DNA from: a virus
Lineage: Duplodnaviria > Heunggongvirae > Uroviricota > Caudoviricetes
Direction: 5' to 3' (one strand)
DNA length: 64,000 nt
Virus record (IMG/VR): IMGVR_UViG_2675903433_000022
In this document: piece by piece, positions 46,277 to 55,517 of the stretch
Layout: every line of letters starts with the position of its first letter
Position numbering within the stretch: the first letter of the stretch is position 1
Made by a program: the position numbers and the translations under genes
Notes under the pieces: generated by a model
Told to the model about the DNA's origin: nothing
The model's database searches: none
Seen by the model: the letters and a program-made list of their open reading frames with translations, nothing else

Positions 46277-49200
46277 ATGTGGTACAGGGAAGGTACTATC
46301 ACATTTACACAGGGCAGCAATACTCTGGTTGGGGCAGGGACAGCCTGGAACGTAACAGCTAATGGTGTGTTGCCGGGGATGATCGTCATTGGCCCCGACA
46401 ACAAGCTGTATGAGATCAAGCGCGTAACCAGTGATACGAACATTGTTCTCTCAGAACCTTATACCGGCGAAACTCAGTCTGAAGTTCCGTGCCGAATCAT
46501 TACGACCTATGAAGGCGACTTAACACAGTTTAGCGCGCGCTTTACTGCACTAATGTCGCGTATGTCGGCTGATTCCAAGTCCATGCGCAGTTGGTTGACT
46601 GCTCTGGATGAGGTGACAATCGAGCGTGAAGACGGTACAGAAGTGACCGTTAAGCCGCTAATGCAGATCGTCAACGAGCACAACGAAAACGTTGAGTGGT
46701 ATAAAAATAACACTGACGCGATTAATGCTGCTGGCGACAAAGCTAGTGAGGCGGCGGCCAGTGCTGCCGCAGCAGCAGAAAGCGCCAATACCGCTGGAGA
46801 AAAAGCCTCTCAAGCGTCTCAAAGTGCATCCGCTGCGGCATCTTCACAAAGTGCTGCAAGTGCGAGCGCAACTGCTGCGAAAAAATCTGAAACGAACGCA
46901 CAAGCTGCAAAAGAAGCGGCAGCAGAATCAGCATCTGTAGCGTCGGCCAAAGCATCGGAGGCAGCAACATCTGCGTCCAGTGCCTCTGCGTCTAAGGATG
47001 CAGCCAAAGCATCAGAGACTAACGCTTCATCGAGTGCAAACGCGGCGGCATCATCGGCAACAGAAGCTGCAAATTCGTCTAAGGCAGCAAAAACGTCAGA
47101 GACAAACGCAAAAGCATCTGAAACGGCAGCCGAACAAAGTGCATCGTCTGCAAACAGTTCGAAATCTGCGGCAGAAGCATCAGCGAGCGCAGCCTCAGCA
47201 AGTGCGGTTAGTGCTTCATCAAGTGCAACAGCGGCAGGAAAATCTGCGGATAGTGCATCGTCATCAGCGACAATAGCTACCACAAAAGCGACAGAGGCGA
47301 CAAGTCAGGCTACAGCTGCTAAAAATTCAGCATCGGCAGCAAAAACCTCTGAAACAAATGCAAAGGTCTCAGAAGACAATGCGGCTTCCTCTAAGGCGGC
47401 AGCTGCTGAATCTGCAAGTTCTGCGTCTGCATCAGCCACCTCAGCATCCGCTTCAAAAGATGAGGCGACCAAGCAGGCATCAGCAGCGAAGGGTAGTGCT
47501 TCAACGGCATCCACGAAAGCAACAGAGGCGGCAGGCAGTGCGACGGCTGCATCTCAGAGCAAAGCTGCTGCTGAATCCGCTGCGACCCGTGCAGAAGCTG
47601 CCGCTGATCGTGCTGAAGAGATTGCCGGTGCAGTTGCGATGGAAGATGCAAGCCTTACCACCAAAGGTGTTGTGAAACTTAGCAGTGCTGTCGACAGCAC
47701 CAGTGAATCTTTAGCCGCGACACCAAAAGCAGTTAAGACCGCATATGATAATGCTGAAAAACGACTACAGAAGGATCAGAATGGTGCTGATATCCCCGAC
47801 AAGGGCCGCTTCCTGAATAACATTAATGTTTACAGCAAAGGTGAAGTGGATAAGAAAAAGGGGATGCGATACGTTGTGGTAAATGCCCCGGCGGGTGTCC
47901 AGGAAGGTAAATATTATCCGTTAGTGATAAAAAGGAATGACAGCCATCGGGCATCCCGCGTTGTCATTTCAACGCCAAGTCGCACAGCTAATCACAGAAT
48001 GAATAACTGTGAGTTTAATGGTTTTGTTTGCGCAGGCGGCTGGACGGACCGGGGTAGCTATGCCTGTGGTATGTTCTGGGCTTATTCATCATCGGAACGC
48101 GCTATTCATTCCATTCTGATGAGTAATAAAGGCGATACCGTAGACAGCGTATTCTATATAGAAGGTGGGGCATTTCCCGTAGAGGTCTTTTTAGAAGAAG
48201 GACTCTCCGTTACTGCACCTGCTTCTGATTATGTTGTTGCTGAAACGACTTATAAATTTGGCGCAACTGATCCTTATTCTGAATCAGTTGCGGTAAATTT
48301 AATTTTAGATTTTAAACAAGGCAATGGATTTTATAGTTCGTATCCTGTTTTGAGTAAGTCAGACATTAGCGGTAATAAGGTTTACGCTAATGATGAAGTT
48401 ATTGTCCGTAGTCAGAATGCGTTAAGGATGATTGCTGGCGATTACGGTGTCATATGGCGAAATGATGGAGCAAATACTTACTTGCTGATGACTGATAAAG
48501 GCGACCAGTACGGTGGCTGGAACGGTCTTCGACCATTTGCTGTAGATAACGCAACAGGTGAAGTTACGATCAATACACCACTTAATTCTCCAAAAGGGGT
48601 TAAGGGGAATTCTGATACAGCTACGAAACTTCAGACTGCAAGAAAAATATCCGGTGTTCCATTTGATGGCTCTACTGATATCACTTTAACCGCCGCGCAT
48701 GTTGCCGCTTTCGCAAGAAGAGCAACAGGGTCATATGCGGATGCTGATGGTGGCGTGCCGTGGAATGCTGAATCTGGTGCTTACAATGTAACTAGAACAG
48801 GCGACAGTTATATTCTTGCCAACTTTTATACCGGTGTAGGTAGTTGCCGTACGCTTCAAATTAAAGCTCACTATAAAAATGGTGGTCTGTTCTACCGTTC
48901 CTCAAGAGATGGCTATGGTTTTGAAAGTGGTTGGGAGCAGGTTTACACGACTGGATTTATGCCTCAGCCGGCTGATATAAACGCACCAACCGCTGCCGCT
49001 GGATGGTTAAATAGTGGTAACGGAACGGCATTTACGACTGCTCAATTTATAACTTGGCTAAATAATCAGGGGGCATTTACAAACAAACATTGGATCGCAC
49101 GGTGCTCATGGACTTACGCCAACAATAATTATATAGACGACACTGGTTGCGGTAGGATCGATCTATCTGGTTCCGTGATTGAGGTGTTTAGTAATAAGGC

Positions 49201-50695
49201 AACAAGCCACTACACTATTCGTGTTACAACGACAACAACATCAGGTCATGGTGGTGTTAATAATGCGGAATTTATTTATGTGTACAATGGGAGTGATTAT
49301 GCGCCAGGCTGGCGTCGTTCTTATAACACCAGAAACAAACCAACAGCTTCTGATGTAGGAGCATTACCGCTTTCAGGTGGCACATTATCTGGGGGGTTAA
49401 CGTCTTCTGGTGAGATCGTTTCAAAATATGCAAATGGTTTCCGCATTGCTTACGGTAACTATGGGTTCTTTATCCGTAATGACGGCGGCAGCACATATTT
49501 CATGCTAACAGCATCAGGAGATACGTTAGGTTCATGGAACAGTTTGCGACCGATTACAATTAATAATACCAGCGGTGTTGTGTCTATTGGTAATGGACTA
49601 AATGTTACTGGTGGCGTAAATGGTAGCTTGAATGGCAATGCTTCAACAGCTACGAAGTTACAAACAGCGAGAAACATCAATGGTGTTAAGTTTGATGGTT
49701 CAGGCGATATCAATATTAATACATTGGTTTCTCGTGGCCGAGTTACGGCTTTAAGCGGTTCTACTCAAGGTACTGCTGGCATTCAAATGTACGAGGCGTA
49801 CAACAATAGCTACCCGACCACGTATGGCAACGTATTGCACATGAAAGGGGCGAGTGCTGCTGGTGAGGGCGAGTTGCTTATTGGCTGGAGTGGTACGAGC
49901 GGTGCACATGCGCCGGTTTTCATTCGCTCCCGAAGAGATACCACTGATGCGGCATGGTCAGCGTGGGCGCAGGTATATACTGCTAAGGATTCAATTCCTG
50001 GTGTGAATACAACCGGTAATCAGAACACTACTGGTAATGCCGCAACCGCCACAAAATTGCAGACAGCAAGGAAAATTGCTGGTGTGGCGTTTGATGGCTC
50101 TGCCGATATTACTTTGACTGCGGCTAACCTTAATGCCTATACGAAAACAGAGGTAACAAACCTTCTAAGTTCCTATGCAACCAGATCATCACTGACAGGC
50201 TATAGTGGCAACCTGGATATTATTGCTGAAACACTGGTTGTCAAATCAGGCGGTAGTGGAGGGTTTGCTATATGGGATATTGGCACAACTACTAGCGGTG
50301 CCAATATGTACATTGATCCAAACCCAGGTATCAATACAGTTTGGCGTTCAACATCTTCAAGGCGCTATAAAAAGGATATTGAAACATTACAAGATCGATA
50401 TGCTGATGAACTTTTGTCATTAAGACCTGTTTGGTATCGTTCAATTTGTCGAGGTGACCGAAAGGATTGGGGGTATTACGGCCTTATTGCTGAAGAGGTT
50501 GGTGAGATTGCCCCGCAATATGTCCATTGGCGTGAACCAACAAATAATGATTCTCCAGAAGATATTTCCTCAAATGGTATGGTCGCTGAAGGGGTGATGT
50601 ATGAGCGTTTGGTTGTACCACTCATTCATCATATTCAGCAATTGACCAAAAGGGTTGAGGAGCTTGAAACGAAGTTAAATTCACCTAAAGAATAA
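46277..50695 (+). CDS. Long tail fibre with C-terminal intramolecular chaperone (S74-type)
   Basis: 1472 aa; Ala/Ser-rich low-complexity region; three ATKLQTARKIxGVxFDGSxDI repeats; C-terminal YKKDIETLQDRYADELLSLRPVWYR resembles self-cleaving chaperone domains. Confidence 0.8.
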   Translation: MWYREGTITFTQGSNTLVGAGTAWNVTANGVLPGMIVIGPDNKLYEIKRVTSDTNIVLSEPYTGETQSEVPCRIITTYEGDLTQFSARFTALMSRMSADSKSMRSWLTALDEVTIEREDGTEVTVKPLMQIVNEHNENVEWYKNNTDAINAAGDKASEAAASAAAAAESANTAGEKASQASQSASAAASSQSAASASATAAKKSETNAQAAKEAAAESASVASAKASEAATSASSASASKDAAKASETNASSSANAAASSATEAANSSKAAKTSETNAKASETAAEQSASSANSSKSAAEASASAASASAVSASSSATAAGKSADSASSSATIATTKATEATSQATAAKNSASAAKTSETNAKVSEDNAASSKAAAAESASSASASATSASASKDEATKQASAAKGSASTASTKATEAAGSATAASQSKAAAESAATRAEAAADRAEEIAGAVAMEDASLTTKGVVKLSSAVDSTSESLAATPKAVKTAYDNAEKRLQKDQNGADIPDKGRFLNNINVYSKGEVDKKKGMRYVVVNAPAGVQEGKYYPLVIKRNDSHRASRVVISTPSRTANHRMNNCEFNGFVCAGGWTDRGSYACGMFWAYSSSERAIHSILMSNKGDTVDSVFYIEGGAFPVEVFLEEGLSVTAPASDYVVAETTYKFGATDPYSESVAVNLILDFKQGNGFYSSYPVLSKSDISGNKVYANDEVIVRSQNALRMIAGDYGVIWRNDGANTYLLMTDKGDQYGGWNGLRPFAVDNATGEVTINTPLNSPKGVKGNSDTATKLQTARKISGVPFDGSTDITLTAAHVAAFARRATGSYADADGGVPWNAESGAYNVTRTGDSYILANFYTGVGSCRTLQIKAHYKNGGLFYRSSRDGYGFESGWEQVYTTGFMPQPADINAPTAAAGWLNSGNGTAFTTAQFITWLNNQGAFTNKHWIARCSWTYANNNYIDDTGCGRIDLSGSVIEVFSNKATSHYTIRVTTTTTSGHGGVNNAEFIYVYNGSDYAPGWRRSYNTRNKPTASDVGALPLSGGTLSGGLTSSGEIVSKYANGFRIAYGNYGFFIRNDGGSTYFMLTASGDTLGSWNSLRPITINNTSGVVSIGNGLNVTGGVNGSLNGNASTATKLQTARNINGVKFDGSGDININTLVSRGRVTALSGSTQGTAGIQMYEAYNNSYPTTYGNVLHMKGASAAGEGELLIGWSGTSGAHAPVFIRSRRDTTDAAWSAWAQVYTAKDSIPGVNTTGNQNTTGNAATATKLQTARKIAGVAFDGSADITLTAANLNAYTKTEVTNLLSSYATRSSLTGYSGNLDIIAETLVVKSGGSGGFAIWDIGTTTSGANMYIDPNPGINTVWRSTSSRRYKKDIETLQDRYADELLSLRPVWYRSICRGDRKDWGYYGLIAEEVGEIAPQYVHWREPTNNDSPEDISSNGMVAEGVMYERLVVPLIHHIQQLTKRVEELETKLNSPKE
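46720..47650 (+). repeat. Low-complexity Ala/Ser/Lys-rich repeat region within the tail-fibre gene
   Basis: Repetitive ASxAAxSA units; generates spurious ORFs on both strands. Confidence 0.4.
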
Positions 50696-50755
50696 ACAAC
50701 TTCAATCGGGGCTGGAACTAAACCAGCCCCTGCTTAAAAGTATAAGGATATATTT

Positions 50756-51010
50756 ATGAGCTATGGTGCACAGGTATGGTCGCCATCAAGACAGGAGATG
50801 GTCGATGCGTTGGCCCCTGTTTATTACCTCGATTATTTTACTCCCTCTGGTTCTGGAAGTAGAACATATGAGGTTGAGGCGGGATTGGGAATCGACTATT
50901 ACATAATGGACGTAACCAATGGGAAATACACAAGTCTTACGGTTTCTGGAAATACCATTTCATGGTCTGGAGCTAGTGGCAATTTAAACATATTGGTTTT
51001 TCAAAAATAA
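50756..51010 (+). CDS. Hypothetical tail-fibre-associated protein
   Basis: 84 aa; AAGGA RBS. Confidence 0.5.
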   Translation: MSYGAQVWSPSRQEMVDALAPVYYLDYFTPSGSGSRTYEVEAGLGIDYYIMDVTNGKYTSLTVSGNTISWSGASGNLNILVFQK

Positions 51011-51618
51011 TGTACGGAAGCAAGATATATCGATCTGACGGGAAGGTCTGGATGTCTCCTTCTTTGTCTCCTATCGTTTTTCAGAGAAAGCAGGTTGTTT
51101 CTTTGTCTGGCGGGACAGAGTTTAACACCCAAATATCTCCAGATCGTTCACCGATGATTTTTGTTGCCTATTCGAAAGCTGTTTCATTAATAGCCAACAG
51201 AATAGTGCGTAACAACCAGGTGATTTACAGTTTCGGAGGTCAGGGTAGCGACTCTAGTGCCACGATATACGTATTTTCGAAAGGTATAGCCAAAAAAGAA
51301 ACTTGGGGCATGAGTTTTTTCAATGCGCGAGGAGAGGAGATCTATAATACGGCAAATATCCCACTTTCATTTACCTTTCTTAATAATACGGAGTGGAACA
51401 GTTCTGGAGGGCATGTTTTTGATTACCCGCCAGCGATAATCCCAACATATGCAAATGTGTTCGCGGTTCCAGTACCGGGCGGGGCCATGACAATGGTTTA
51501 TGGATATGCGGCATATGGAAATACTGTTAGTTCCATATTCGTAAACCAACTTAATGGCGGCCATAGTTTTAGCGTAAATGGCAGAGTACCGGTAATAAAT
51601 AGAAATCTGTATAACTGA
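51010..51618 (+). CDS. Hypothetical tail-fibre-associated protein
   Basis: 202 aa; TAATG coupling. Confidence 0.5.
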   Translation: MYGSKIYRSDGKVWMSPSLSPIVFQRKQVVSLSGGTEFNTQISPDRSPMIFVAYSKAVSLIANRIVRNNQVIYSFGGQGSDSSATIYVFSKGIAKKETWGMSFFNARGEEIYNTANIPLSFTFLNNTEWNSSGGHVFDYPPAIIPTYANVFAVPVPGGAMTMVYGYAAYGNTVSSIFVNQLNGGHSFSVNGRVPVINRNLYN

Positions 51619-51628
51619 TGAGTAAACG

Positions 51629-51859
51629 ATGAAAAGATTATTTCTAACAATAGCTGTTGTTCTCTCTCTTACTGGCTGTCAGAAATTGCCGACACCCATA
51701 TGTTATGGTGAGGCTATCATTGGTGGACAGGAGACAGTCATACCTATATATGCTGTTAAAAAGGTTAACGGCTATACCTTATACAAAGCGGGTAGCATCT
51801 ATAACTGGCGATGGGTTGGAGTAGGTGCTTTCTCATCAGTGCGTTGCAATGCTGAATGA
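51629..51859 (+). CDS. Small lipoprotein, candidate superinfection-exclusion (Llp/Cor-like position)
   Basis: 76 aa with signal peptide and lipobox LTGC; located directly downstream of the fibre genes. Confidence 0.6.
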   Translation: MKRLFLTIAVVLSLTGCQKLPTPICYGEAIIGGQETVIPIYAVKKVNGYTLYKAGSIYNWRWVGVGAFSSVRCNAE

Positions 51860-51940: not shown

Positions 51941-52264
51941 ATGTCGAACGAGATGGCGGGCGTTACAACAGAGCAAGTTGAGCGTATTGCCGCGATCGTT
52001 GCTCGGGAGGTTGTTGGCAAATTAGGCAAAGAGCTACGTGAAGAAATTGGCCAGGAGGTCAATGATCAGCTGAAAACCTACTTTGGTGATATGACCCCGG
52101 CGCAACATAGTATTCAACACTCCAACCTGGACAAGCTCCTTAACCGGTTAGATTCCATCTCCAGTGGGTTCTTTGGCGGCATTGTTTCTAAAATAACGTC
52201 GTTCATTATTACCGCACTGCTTTTGGGGTTAGCCGCGTATGGCGTAAAAAATGGACTGCAATAA
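51941..52264 (+). CDS. Membrane protein with single C-terminal TM segment (possible holin-like protein)
   Basis: GGAGG RBS 5 nt before ATG; C-terminal ITSFIITALLLGLAAYGV. Confidence 0.45.
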   Translation: MSNEMAGVTTEQVERIAAIVAREVVGKLGKELREEIGQEVNDQLKTYFGDMTPAQHSIQHSNLDKLLNRLDSISSGFFGGIVSKITSFIITALLLGLAAYGVKNGLQ

Positions 52265-52277
52265 CAGGAGATCAAGG

Positions 52278-52970
52278 ATGAAGACTCCGAGAGGCATTCG
52301 TAATAATAACCCCGGTAATCTTGATAAAGGATCACCGTGGCAAGGTCTGGTTGCGAATCCAGACGAACCGCGTTTTTGCACGTTTAAAGACCCTGTTTGG
52401 GGGATTCGTGCGCTGGCGGTGACTCTAATTACCTACCACGACAAACGTCGCGCAAAAGACGGCTCAAGTATCGATACCATTCGTGAAGTTATTGAACGTT
52501 GGGCACCGCCGAATGAAAACAACACTGACGCCTACATTAATGAGGTGTCTAAAGCCGTTGGTGTAACCGCAGACATGATCATCGATCTGCATGATTACGA
52601 CATCCTTCGACCTTTGGTTGAGGCAATCATTCGCCACGAGAATGGCCGGGGTCCGCTAAAAACGCTGAACACCTGGTATGCGGCAGAAGTTATTGAGGAA
52701 GGTCTGCGTCGAGCTGGCGTTGTTAAGCCGGTGAAAACCGTGAAGGCTGTTCCTGTAACTAAAGAAACAGCAGGCGCAACTGTTACAGCAGGTATTGGTC
52801 TGGCGCAACTGGCCGATGTTATGCCGCAGGTTTCCGCTGCTATGGATAAGGCACAAGGCCATATCTCTAGCGGGGATACAGTACGCATCATCTTCGGTAT
52901 TGCCACTATTGTTGTGGCCGGATTCATTGCCTGGTCGCAGGTAAGAAAACACCAGAAAGGGATGGTCTAA
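52278..52970 (+). CDS. Lysis-module protein, possible cell-wall hydrolase with C-terminal membrane anchor
   Basis: AGGAG RBS; hydrophobic C-terminus IIFGIATIVVAGFIAW; position between putative holin and spanins. Confidence 0.5.
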   Translation: MKTPRGIRNNNPGNLDKGSPWQGLVANPDEPRFCTFKDPVWGIRALAVTLITYHDKRRAKDGSSIDTIREVIERWAPPNENNTDAYINEVSKAVGVTADMIIDLHDYDILRPLVEAIIRHENGRGPLKTLNTWYAAEVIEEGLRRAGVVKPVKTVKAVPVTKETAGATVTAGIGLAQLADVMPQVSAAMDKAQGHISSGDTVRIIFGIATIVVAGFIAWSQVRKHQKGMV

Positions 52971-52971
52971 T

Positions 52972-53223
52972 ATGCTAGGCAGCCTGATGACAAAGCTAAA
53001 AGTTGCTTTGATTACGCTGGCTGCCGTTCTTTTCGTTCTGGTCGGCGCTTACACGATGGGCGGGAATGCAGCACGACGAGCAATGGAAGAGAAGGCAAAA
53101 CAGGAAGACAGAAAACGACTTCAAAGCACAGTGGACGTCAAAAATGAAACACTTGATGAGTTACGGCGCAAGGATGCTTCTTCTGTTCATCATGAGTTGC
53201 ACAATAAGTGGTTGCGTGATTAA
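52972..53223 (+). CDS. i-spanin (Rz-like)
   Basis: 83 aa, N-terminal TM helix then charged coiled region. Confidence 0.6.
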   Translation: MLGSLMTKLKVALITLAAVLFVLVGAYTMGGNAARRAMEEKAKQEDRKRLQSTVDVKNETLDELRRKDASSVHHELHNKWLRD

Positions 53224-53374
53224 GCCTCAACCCGCTGGTGTGCTTTTCTGCGATGCGGCTACACCGCTATACATCAGCCGTGATGATCTCATGACCGAAG
53301 AGACTGAAAGAGAGGTGCTTTTTCACAATATGATAGGGGAGCGATTGTGTGGATGGGGCAGAAAAGTACCATAA
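53144..53374 (+). CDS. o-spanin (Rz1-like lipoprotein), overlapping the i-spanin gene in the +1 frame
   Basis: MKHLMSYGARMLLLFIMSCTISGC signal with lipobox; start lies inside the Rz-like gene. Confidence 0.55.
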   Translation: MKHLMSYGARMLLLFIMSCTISGCVIKPQPAGVLFCDAATPLYISRDDLMTEETEREVLFHNMIGERLCGWGRKVP

Positions 53375-53551: not shown

Positions 53552-53935
53552 ATGCTGAACGAAAAACGTTCTATACAAACAATTCGCGATTGCACGAGTG
53601 TTATCGCAACTCATGTGCTGAATAAGCGCAAACTTGAGGTGCGTAAACTTAACAACGATGCGACTGCGCCAAAAGACACTCGCTTCATCGTAACTTTCAA
53701 AGACGATGTTGAGAATGCTGGTGCCAGTGTAAAACCGTTGGCTGAAGCGATTTTCCTGAACGATCGTGTTCGTTTCATTGTGAAGCCAGCAAAACAATAC
53801 CCTGAATTAGCACGGTTTAGTGACCAATTCTCTGAAATTATTGAGAGTGCAATTCGCCGCTTTCTTAATACTCATGGTAGCATTGTCAGCAATACAACTG
53901 CTGATGGTACTGCTCTAAGATGGCACCTACACTAG
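53552..53935 (+). CDS. Hypothetical protein
   Basis: 127 aa; RBS ctaaggtggac. Confidence 0.5.
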   Translation: MLNEKRSIQTIRDCTSVIATHVLNKRKLEVRKLNNDATAPKDTRFIVTFKDDVENAGASVKPLAEAIFLNDRVRFIVKPAKQYPELARFSDQFSEIIESAIRRFLNTHGSIVSNTTADGTALRWHLH

Positions 53936-54672
53936 AACGCACATACTCTAAAAATCTTTATGAGTTTCCTCACCGTGGGGAAACTCGCGTTTCACGTTTT
54001 GGCTACCTCATCAACGAAGCATCGCTTTTCAAAATATCTGAAATAACCATTATCGAGCCTGATGATGATATCTGTCTGTATATCCTGATGGAGAAAGTTG
54101 GAGCACGAGATCAGGGTGAACTGATGGACTTCATTCTGGACAGAGGCGAAGATGGAATGTCTGATTCGGACATTATTCAAGCAATTCTGCGTTCCGACAT
54201 GCTCGATCAGAGCAGAAACACGATAGCAGGCAGAATTGCCTTGCGTGAATACACATTCATCGAGGATGGGGTAGAGATTGACTGCTATCAGATTGCAGGT
54301 GTTGAAACAGAAAGAGCAATAAGGCAAAGGGGACTGTGCAACCTCACGTATCGCTTCCTCCTTCATTGGTACGAACATCTTGTCTGTGATTACAATCAGA
54401 CCATTCCTGGCGCAAAAATCTGGGCCGGTCCATTAATGCGAACAGGTGATGTAAGAATTTACAACGCAAAAACTGAGACGTTCGAGGATGTGTTAGGCGA
54501 ATATGGGATGGGAAAAGAAACCGGCTTTTTGCCGTGGAACAGAGGATTGTTACTTGATCCAGAATTAAGCTCTTGGTTTCCAAATAAGGTGCAAGTTAAC
54601 GTTGAGAAATTTATCGTACTTATCATCTCCCGCAAAACAAGAACCCCAGTTGGTTTATATCTAAAAGATTAA
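53920..54672 (+). CDS. Hypothetical protein
   Basis: 250 aa, overlaps upstream gene by 16 nt. Confidence 0.55.
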   Translation: MAPTLERTYSKNLYEFPHRGETRVSRFGYLINEASLFKISEITIIEPDDDICLYILMEKVGARDQGELMDFILDRGEDGMSDSDIIQAILRSDMLDQSRNTIAGRIALREYTFIEDGVEIDCYQIAGVETERAIRQRGLCNLTYRFLLHWYEHLVCDYNQTIPGAKIWAGPLMRTGDVRIYNAKTETFEDVLGEYGMGKETGFLPWNRGLLLDPELSSWFPNKVQVNVEKFIVLIISRKTRTPVGLYLKD

Positions 54673-54848: not shown

Positions 54849-55517
54849 ATGACCAAGATCTTTGTGGTTGGCGGCACAAAGGGCGGGCCTGGCAAATCCA
54901 CTGTTGCCCAGCAAATTGCCGTTTGCCTGAAAGTCAAAAAGAAGAAGAAGGTTTATATCACTGATATAGATATTCAGCGCACGACAACAAGCTGGTGTGA
55001 AGACCGTCGACAGAACGAAGACCTTGAGCTGATTCCTTTTGCCTACGTTCAGGATGACATCATTAAGCACCTAAAATCGCTTCAGGGTAGAGCTGAGTTT
55101 GTAGTGGTAGATGCTGGTGGCTTTGACTCCGAAATTCAGCGACAAGCGATGCTGATGGCCGACGTTATCATTATCCCGCTGCGTCCTAAGCGTCGTGATT
55201 TGAAATCTCTGCGTGACATCGATCCTATTATCGACAATGTTCGTAATGTAAACGATAAAGTGAAGGTCCGCGCGGTCATGAACCAGTGCCCGGCTTTGCC
55301 ATCACAAGTGTCTCGCATTCTGGCGGCTAAAGAGATTGTCGAGACGTTTGGCATCGAGTCTGCGCCAGTCAATCTATATAACCGCAACGTCTACGATGAT
55401 GCGGAAGAGTCTGGTCGTTCTATCTTCGAAATGACCGGTAGCGAGCGCGACAAAAAGGCTGAAGCCGAGTTTGAAGAATTTGTAGATTATCTGTTGAGTC
55501 TGGAGGAAGAAGAATAA
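54849..55517 (+). CDS. ParA/ParF-family partition ATPase
   Basis: Deviant Walker A KIFVVGGTKGGPGKST; 222 aa (small type Ib ParA size). Confidence 0.85.
   Translation: MTKIFVVGGTKGGPGKSTVAQQIAVCLKVKKKKKVYITDIDIQRTTTSWCEDRRQNEDLELIPFAYVQDDIIKHLKSLQGRAEFVVVDAGGFDSEIQRQAMLMADVIIIPLRPKRRDLKSLRDIDPIIDNVRNVNDKVKVRAVMNQCPALPSQVSRILAAKEIVETFGIESAPVNLYNRNVYDDAEESGRSIFEMTGSERDKKAEAEFEEFVDYLLSLEEEE

Follow-up and report, generated by a model that had tools for sequence, protein, structure and literature searches.

The known targets of the exclusion lipoproteins Cor and Llp are outer-membrane proteins. Cor is found in N15, phi80 and the HK and mEp lambdoid phages, which are FhuA-dependent. In T5, the partner of Llp is the receptor-binding protein (RBP) pb5, and llp, which is transcribed from an early promoter of its own, is divergent from the pb5 gene. 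Loci downstream of the tail-tip gene J encode RBPs that sit non-covalently on the J tip together with cognate exclusion lipoproteins, and the alleles of these loci track the receptor (PMC8594841; bioRxiv 10.64898/2026.04.02.716166). A three-gene form, the extended cor cassette, tracks the use of FhuA, and the FhuA users include N15, phi80 and HK022 (PMC13164509). For the LptD allele, cryo-EM showed the two proteins on opposite sides of the receptor, the RBP on its outer and the lipoprotein on its periplasmic face (PMC12685063).

The 64,000-nucleotide stretch of viral DNA analysed here (the window) comes from an SSU5-like E. coli phage-plasmid. About 570 plasmid records match the 7.1 kb around the locus. 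The best plasmid matches are E. coli plasmids of about 110 kb with 93-97% identity, and the phage-plasmids CMS-2020a, Cyrano, PhiR41_1 and SSU5 also match this region. The tail assembly genes are followed by J, the gene for a 1472-aa fibre, three small genes, holin, endolysin and Rz/Rz1, with ParA later at 54849 (Table 1). All coordinates in a preliminary description of this DNA were correct, and the fibre gene and the two small genes between it and the lipoprotein gene are present as described. The explanation that we favour, and hold with fair confidence as a whole, FhuA included, places the host-recognition end of an SSU5-like phage-plasmid's late operon in this region. The region would hold two separate recognition devices, a side fibre and a FhuA-type RBP/Cor cassette.

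Table 1. Features of the host-recognition and lysis region, in positions of the window.
Feature	Position	Strand	Basis or detail
Central tail-tip protein J, 1576 aa	41453..46183	+	NCBIfam lambda_TipJ
Side (lateral) tail fibre, 1472 aa	46277..50695	+	Pfam, PHROG and PDB sequence matches
GC-rich hairpin in the gap between fibre gene and cassette	50708..50730	+	folding versus shuffles
Putative accessory protein, 84 aa	50756..51010	+	phrog_557; homologue of N15 gp22, phi80 gp22 and T1 gp32
Putative tail-tip receptor-binding protein, 202 aa	51010..51618	+	homologue of N15 gp23, phi80 gp23 and T1 gp31
Cor superinfection-exclusion lipoprotein, 76 aa	51629..51859	+	predicted signal peptide aa 1-16 and lipid-modified Cys17; Cys25, Cys73
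Lysis module downstream	51941..53374	+	holin 51941-52264; endolysin 52251-52970; Rz 52972-53223; Rz1 embedded in Rz

The third small gene encodes a 76-aa product that had been taken for a lipoprotein with the lipobox LTGC, and its sequence agrees with this. The ORF starts MKRLFLTIAVVLSLTGC; its n-region is basic, the core is hydrophobic, and the lipobox L-T-G-C has Gln at +2. The predicted cleavage and lipidation site lies between MKRLFLTIAVVLSLTG and C, the cysteine being C17. Pfam LPAM_1 scored 17.3 bits on this protein, under the cut-off of 20. The NCBIfam equivalog model NF047972, named 'phage exclusion lipoprotein Cor', matched aa 1-74 with 79.5 bits (cut-off 31); for comparison, the experimentally studied Cor of T1 scored 52.4 bits and SSU5_025 scored 77.5 bits. 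The product was also matched by phrog_1119, 'Cor superinfection exclusion protein' (E 7.8e-30). Its identity was 57-59% to SSU5_025, which is annotated as Cor-like, 47% to the Cor of several HK/mEp lambdoid phages, 42-43% to the Cor of N15 and phi80, and 27% to that of T1. Over this range of 27-47%, the Cor proteins of phi80, N15, HK022, the mEp phages and T1 likewise have about 76 aa, a lipobox and two more conserved cysteines. C17 in the lipobox, C25 and C73 were invariant in an alignment of 84 homologues. A search of the protein database returned only three fragments with Cor alone as the query, and 213 matches with a five-sequence alignment. The RefSeq name for the 97-99.5% identical gene is 'cor: phage exclusion lipoprotein Cor'; this gene is present on plasmids of 68 of the 5,426 complete E. 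coli genomes and on the chromosome of none. The PADLOC defence models had no matches among the cassette proteins.

The lipoprotein had been compared with T5 Llp, as an exclusion protein encoded beside receptor-binding genes. This interpretation is supported, with the refinement that the family is Cor and not Llp. A profile of five Cor proteins had T5 Llp as its best PDB match (E 0.042). In hhalign, Cor and Llp aligned over 70 columns (probability 90%, E 1.5e-6), and all three cysteines fell in register. The AlphaFold2 model of Cor (pLDDT 88.8) has an Llp-like fold. Foldseek with this model returned nothing significant and did not recover Llp, and phmmer of Cor against the PDB did not find Llp either. 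The 'Pizza' designer-protein matches in that phmmer search were an artefact of summed insignificant repeat matches, at about 3 bits per stretch. T5 Llp (PDB 8A60, 7QJF) is only about 15-26% identical to Cor and is found by profile methods only. Since Llp has no match to the Cor family model, the protein is not an Llp orthologue; it is a Cor-family member with the Llp fold and would act in the manner of Llp. T5 pb5 is likewise unrelated to the 202-aa protein encoded here. Very probably, the locus has a Cor-family exclusion lipoprotein inside an RBP cassette.

The start codon of the 202-aa gene overlaps the stop codon of the 84-aa gene. The 84-aa protein belongs to phrog_557 (E 1.3e-24) and is 69% identical to SSU5_023 and 25-28% identical to its counterparts in N15, phi80 and T1. 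The 202-aa protein matched phrog_425 over its full length (E 5.5e-49). It is 75% identical to SSU5_024 and, in the full-length alignment, 19-22% identical to the proteins of T1, N15 and phi80; the alignment with T1, N15, phi80 and SSU5 has 21 invariant columns. Its nearest relatives other than SSU5 are in Warwickvirus-type phages, at 29-32%. The gene order of 84-aa gene, 202-aa gene and cor is the same in N15 (gp22-23-24), phi80 (gp22-23-cor) and an Enterobacter prophage, where J is followed by a gene of about 100 aa, a gene of about 225 aa and cor. The three genes are also present in T1, where cor is inverted. This shared order, in which cor comes last and closes the tail genes, and the homology identify 50756-51859 as the known extended cor cassette. 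SSU5_023 to SSU5_025 are the direct orthologous cassette in the type phage. Two other candidate relationships were rejected. The 84-aa and 202-aa proteins as paralogues had an hhalign probability of only 18% over a 24-residue motif, and orf22, which precedes cor in Stx2 phage 86, is no relative of the 202-aa protein.

The structural model of the 202-aa protein was of moderate quality (pLDDT 66, with aa 147-190 below 50) and matches the fold of an experimentally proven tail-tip RBP from an RBP locus downstream of gpJ. An HMM of the 202-aa family had no matches among PDB sequences. For T1-type proteins, the KanT1 paper found no structural matches, so the fold match of the model is modest support for reading the protein as an RBP. 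The RBP of the LptD-using phages Rtp and Oekolampad has no sequence similarity to the 202-aa protein by HMMER. We know of no counterpart of the 84-aa gene in the Rtp/Oekolampad locus. Public records call the two small genes 'membrane proteins' or 'hypothetical', and these would be mislabels. The match of the model to a solved tail-tip RBP supports renaming both genes.

The cassette differs from its described relatives in position, spacing and carrier. In N15 and phi80 it stands right after J, whereas here and in SSU5 it stands after the 4.4-kb side-fibre gene, which lies between J and the cassette. The locus is thus not directly downstream of J, the position used to define an RBP locus. The cor gene starts 10 bp past the preceding gene, whereas N15 and phi80 have a gap of about 110 bp there. 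A plasmid-prophage of about 110 kb is the carrier, in contrast to the known Cor phages (phi80, N15, HK022, mEp, T1). The cassette is also a variable module: Cyrano runs from the fibre gene to holin, and PhiR41_1 has other genes at the site. The allele described here was present at 95% or higher nucleotide identity in 73 PLSDB plasmids, and a similar J in about 200 Escherichia or Shigella plasmids.

Probably, the receptor is FhuA. FhuA is the best guess because this Cor groups with the Cor of FhuA-dependent phages and the cassette type is associated with FhuA in the literature. The choice remains a guess for three reasons. A 2026 preprint defines receptor-specific RBP families by more than 30% identity (bioRxiv 10.64898/2026.04.02.716166). 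The identity of 19-22% to T1, N15 and phi80 falls below this value, so FhuA specificity cannot be read from the 202-aa protein. In addition, its nearest relatives are in Warwickvirus, for which no receptor was found in the literature, and the only published receptor of SSU5, as cited in PMC12312913, is the LPS core, bound via a fibre adhesin; SSU5 is not reported to depend on FhuA.

It is possible, though doubtful, that the cassette has the same architecture and uses another outer-membrane protein, such as BtuB or another TonB-dependent transporter, which Cor would then block. The identity of the 202-aa protein, near 20% with the FhuA type and near 30% with that of Warwickvirus, is consistent with this. 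Cor-like lipoproteins also occur in BtuB-using phages (PMC13164509), and exclusion lipoproteins are also known for LptD (PMC12685063). Against another receptor, this Cor is 42-47% identical to the Cor of the FhuA users N15, phi80 and the HK/mEp phages, and it passes the equivalog-level Cor model by a wide margin. Given the sequence divergence of its RBP, the SSU5-type cassette might be a distinct receptor-specificity allele that targets an outer-membrane protein other than FhuA, though this is rather unlikely. If Cor were also made from the plasmid-prophage, the carriers, about 1% of E. coli, would then possess a changed transporter and withstand a class of phages, which would amount to lysogenic conversion by a phage-plasmid.

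The KanT1 authors assumed that the two small proteins are exclusion accessory factors, that is, membrane-associated partners of Cor and not virion RBPs. The small-gene pair does co-occur with Cor-type lipoproteins in T1, N15, phi80 and SECphi27. In Warwickvirus phages, the pair has a gene for a lipoprotein of Cor/Llp architecture just upstream. Short-tailed Stx phages have homologous pairs as well, and the pair of PhiR41_1 stands far from the tail genes. However, a signal peptide or transmembrane segment was predicted in neither the 84-aa nor the 202-aa protein, and the maximum Kyte-Doolittle value of the 84-aa protein in a 19-residue window was 0.54. For this reason, virion proteins fit better than the 'membrane protein' labels in the databases. 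We consider the accessory-factor role quite improbable.

The preliminary description had implied that the lipoprotein goes with the long fibre, but a pairing of Cor with the 1472-aa fibre as the terminal RBP is very improbable: in N15, phi80, T1 and the Enterobacter prophage the same cassette follows J directly, with the side-fibre gene after the cassette or elsewhere, Cyrano has a related fibre and no cassette, a stable hairpin stands between fibre gene and cassette, and the usual ligands ascribed to such fibres are surface glycans, in contrast to the outer-membrane protein targets of Cor and Llp. The partner of Cor is instead the small RBP pair. The points in favour of the fibre are that its gene lies directly upstream of the cassette and that in SSU5 the fibre adhesin sets LPS-core binding, as cited in PMC12312913.

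The hairpin, GGGGCTGG-aactaaa-CCAGCCCC, has a folding energy of -17.8 kcal/mol (z -4.9 versus shuffles). It resembles a terminator stem, but its T-run is weak, and the consensus terminator scan did not flag it. In the promoter and terminator scan, fewer sites were found than in shuffled sequence, and no cor-specific promoter was found. Because of this count, the scan is uninformative on the timing of Cor expression.

In the favoured explanation with a side fibre and a FhuA-type cassette, the homologies, the place of Cor in its family and the Llp-like and RBP-like folds are results of this analysis, and we infer the receptor, the attachment of the RBP to J and the timing of Cor expression. Reversible binding to surface glycans would probably occur via the side fibre. 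The 202-aa protein, aided by the 84-aa accessory protein, would be a dedicated RBP. Attached to the J central fibre at its tip by non-covalent contacts, it would bind an outer-membrane protein, for which the TonB-dependent transporter FhuA is the most likely candidate. After export and lipidation at Cys17, Cor would be delivered to the outer membrane, on whose inner face it would bind the periplasmic side of the RBP's own receptor and alter the surface loops, so that phages using this receptor could not adsorb. Infected or carrier cells would be shielded from superinfection, and progeny would not be lost on cell debris.

The fibre and the Cor cassette are ordinary, already annotated members of known families, and nothing about them is conceptually new. 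The practical value of the locus lies in annotation and prediction. Besides the glycan bound by the side fibre, SSU5-like E. coli phage-plasmids probably depend on an outer-membrane protein as receptor, which is most likely FhuA. Strains that carry them may be resistant to phages of the T1, T5 and phi80 types. These predictions bear on the choice of therapeutic phages and on the host range of phage-plasmids, among which are carriers of antibiotic-resistance genes.

J is presumably where the small receptor-binding proteins dock. It matched NCBIfam lambda_TipJ with E 5e-157 and 524 bits. As this is under the model cut-off of 1950 bits, the protein is J-like but distinct from lambda J. Its identity is 97.5% to the J of Cyrano and 79% to that of SSU5, and it has about nine 33-aa repeats at aa 1090-1420. 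These repeats exist at the protein level only; no DNA tandem repeats were found in the J and fibre genes. In its C-terminus, J is homologous to its counterparts in the FhuA phages phi80, N15 and T1; the last 200 aa or so are 39% identical to phi80 gp21, 32% to N15 gp21 and 32% to T1 gp33. Co-variation of the C-terminal domain of J with the presence of the cassette was considered and rejected, as Cyrano has no cassette at the site. With so similar a J in Cyrano, J may not strictly need the cassette proteins, and a requirement for the cassette cannot be read from J.

The lysis genes downstream of cor belong to phrog_5093, phrog_873 (endolysin), phrog_1026 (Rz) and phrog_1275 (Rz1) by PHROG, and their annotations are identical in Cyrano and SSU5. 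The ORF in the Rz1 frame (53066-53374) contains the lipobox ISGC.

The 1472-aa fibre consists of an N-terminal attachment region, a coiled coil, Mu-S-like and T4-gp34-like modules, three ATKLQTAR motifs and a chaperone at aa 1360-1472. It matched Pfam Gp34_trimer (E 2e-57) with two T4 gp34 trimerisation modules, and several PHROG tail-fibre families. Among PDB sequences, it matched Mu fibre S (8ju3, E 2e-71; 5yvq) and T4 gp34. The Ala/Ser-rich region noted earlier is present, with 60-72% Ala+Ser at aa 151-450 versus 8-30% elsewhere, but it is a heptad coiled coil and not a low-complexity region. Residue-identity autocorrelation was about 0.4 at lags 7, 14, 21, 28 and 35, against a background of 0.2, which identifies the stretch as a heptad coiled-coil shaft of about 300 residues. 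The fibre would presumably be trimeric, with a long coiled-coil shaft and mosaic modules. As previously noticed, there are exactly three copies of the motif ATKLQTAR.I.GV.FDGS.DI, at aa 782, 1125 and 1258.

The C-terminal chaperone suggested in the preliminary description was recovered by a profile search. Peptidase_S74 (PF13884) matched aa 1360-1416 above its cut-off of 22 (27 bits, E 5.5e-6), over profile positions 1-57 of 58. The match begins S1360-S-R-R-Y-K1365, in which Ser and Lys are five residues apart, as in the catalytic dyad. We take S1360 and K1365 to have the dyad roles, by analogy with endoNF and T5 pb1. The fibre C-terminus also aligned weakly with the chaperone region of DT57C LtfA (8hqz_d, E 0.021), where the S1360-SRRY-K1365 stretch falls on TSGIEYKKDV. 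This S74 intramolecular chaperone would aid trimer folding and then cut itself at Ser1360, leaving a mature fibre of 1359 aa. With the domain starting at S1360, the predicted self-cleavage would free a 113-aa fragment. Other Peptidase_S74 fibres and spikes (K1F/endoNF endosialidase, T5 pb1, DT57C LtfA) likewise have a C-terminal chaperone of about 110 aa starting Ser-x4-Lys. The present fibre, whose cleavage is a prediction from sequence, differs from them in its shaft, where Mu S and T4 gp34 modules form a mosaic. SSU5 has another allele of the fibre, in which a separate adhesin gene, SSU5_022, takes the place of the C-terminal S74 chaperone.

The homologue of the 202-aa gene is annotated as 188 aa in public records (comparison locus L001, 10614-11222; window 51010-51051). 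An upstream ATG that overlaps the stop codon of the 84-aa gene gives a protein beginning MYGSKI..., and this N-terminus is conserved with N15 gp23, T1 gp31, and SECphi27 gp72. Because of this conservation, the longer start is the correct one. The 84-aa protein and the 202-aa protein each have the short sequence motif (Y/W)G-x-x-(aromatic)-x-x-x-G at the N-terminus, and the 202-aa protein has a further copy in its interior. The profile comparison of the two proteins on this motif gave only 18% probability, so its recurrence may be due to chance.

Homologues of this gene pair were compared across other phages. The related phage-plasmid PhiR41_1 carries a pair (PV340561 17283-18184; L009 3714-4615) whose products are 30% identical to the 84-aa protein and 27% identical to the 202-aa protein. 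This pair lies amid early or accessory genes, distant from the tail genes and without an adjacent cor, a placement not easily reconciled with a role solely as a tail-tip RBP. In Warwickvirus phages (SECphi27, L011 4451-5615), the pair is preceded by a gene for an 89-aa lipoprotein, annotated as hypothetical, whose LTGC lipobox and two further cysteines represent the Cor/Llp architecture; the unit is convergent with J. In the short-tailed Stx phages of the subfamily Sepvirinae (Stx1-converting phage, L012 4768-6443), the same pair of small genes follows the tail-fibre genes and is followed by lom. The Cor of Stx2 phage 86 (L013) is 58% identical to that of the window, and its gene lies downstream of a long fibre gene and of a 181-aa gene that is unrelated to the 202-aa gene.

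Between the fibre gene and the cassette, the stable GC-rich hairpin occupies the place corresponding to the terminators annotated after J in T1 and N15. Its T-run is weak, and it was not picked up by the consensus terminator scan.

Features located in the window
Feature	Position	Detail
J repeats	44720-45710	aa ~1090-1420
Hairpin	50708-50730	8-bp stem; between fibre stop codon and 84-aa gene; -17.8 kcal/mol, z -4.9
Short motif	50762-50794, 51013-51048, 51304-51339	
Endolysin	52251-52970	
Rz	52972-53223	
Rz1	53066-53374	overlaps Rz in a different frame
127-aa and 250-aa genes	53552-54672	unannotated; between lysis genes and parA

About nine tandem repeats of 33 residues make up the distal portion of J; their pattern is ..DISAAI..EQEARA..D.AL..QI..L..K., and the autocorrelation reaches 0.38 at a lag of 33. 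No repeats are detectable at the DNA level in this region. The J of SSU5 is 191 aa shorter, which suggests that repeat number varies.

A second lipoprotein gene near cor, distinct from Cor, encodes the o-spanin Rz1 with an ISGC lipobox (53066-53374, within the Rz/Rz1 region 52972-53374). The endolysin has a hydrophobic segment at its end (IIFGIATIVVAGFIAW). PADLOC returned no match for the 127-aa and 250-aa genes. In Cyrano, the same slot (L002 11680-12514) instead holds a KacT-type toxin-antitoxin pair; thus, the lysis-to-parA interval is a further variable slot.
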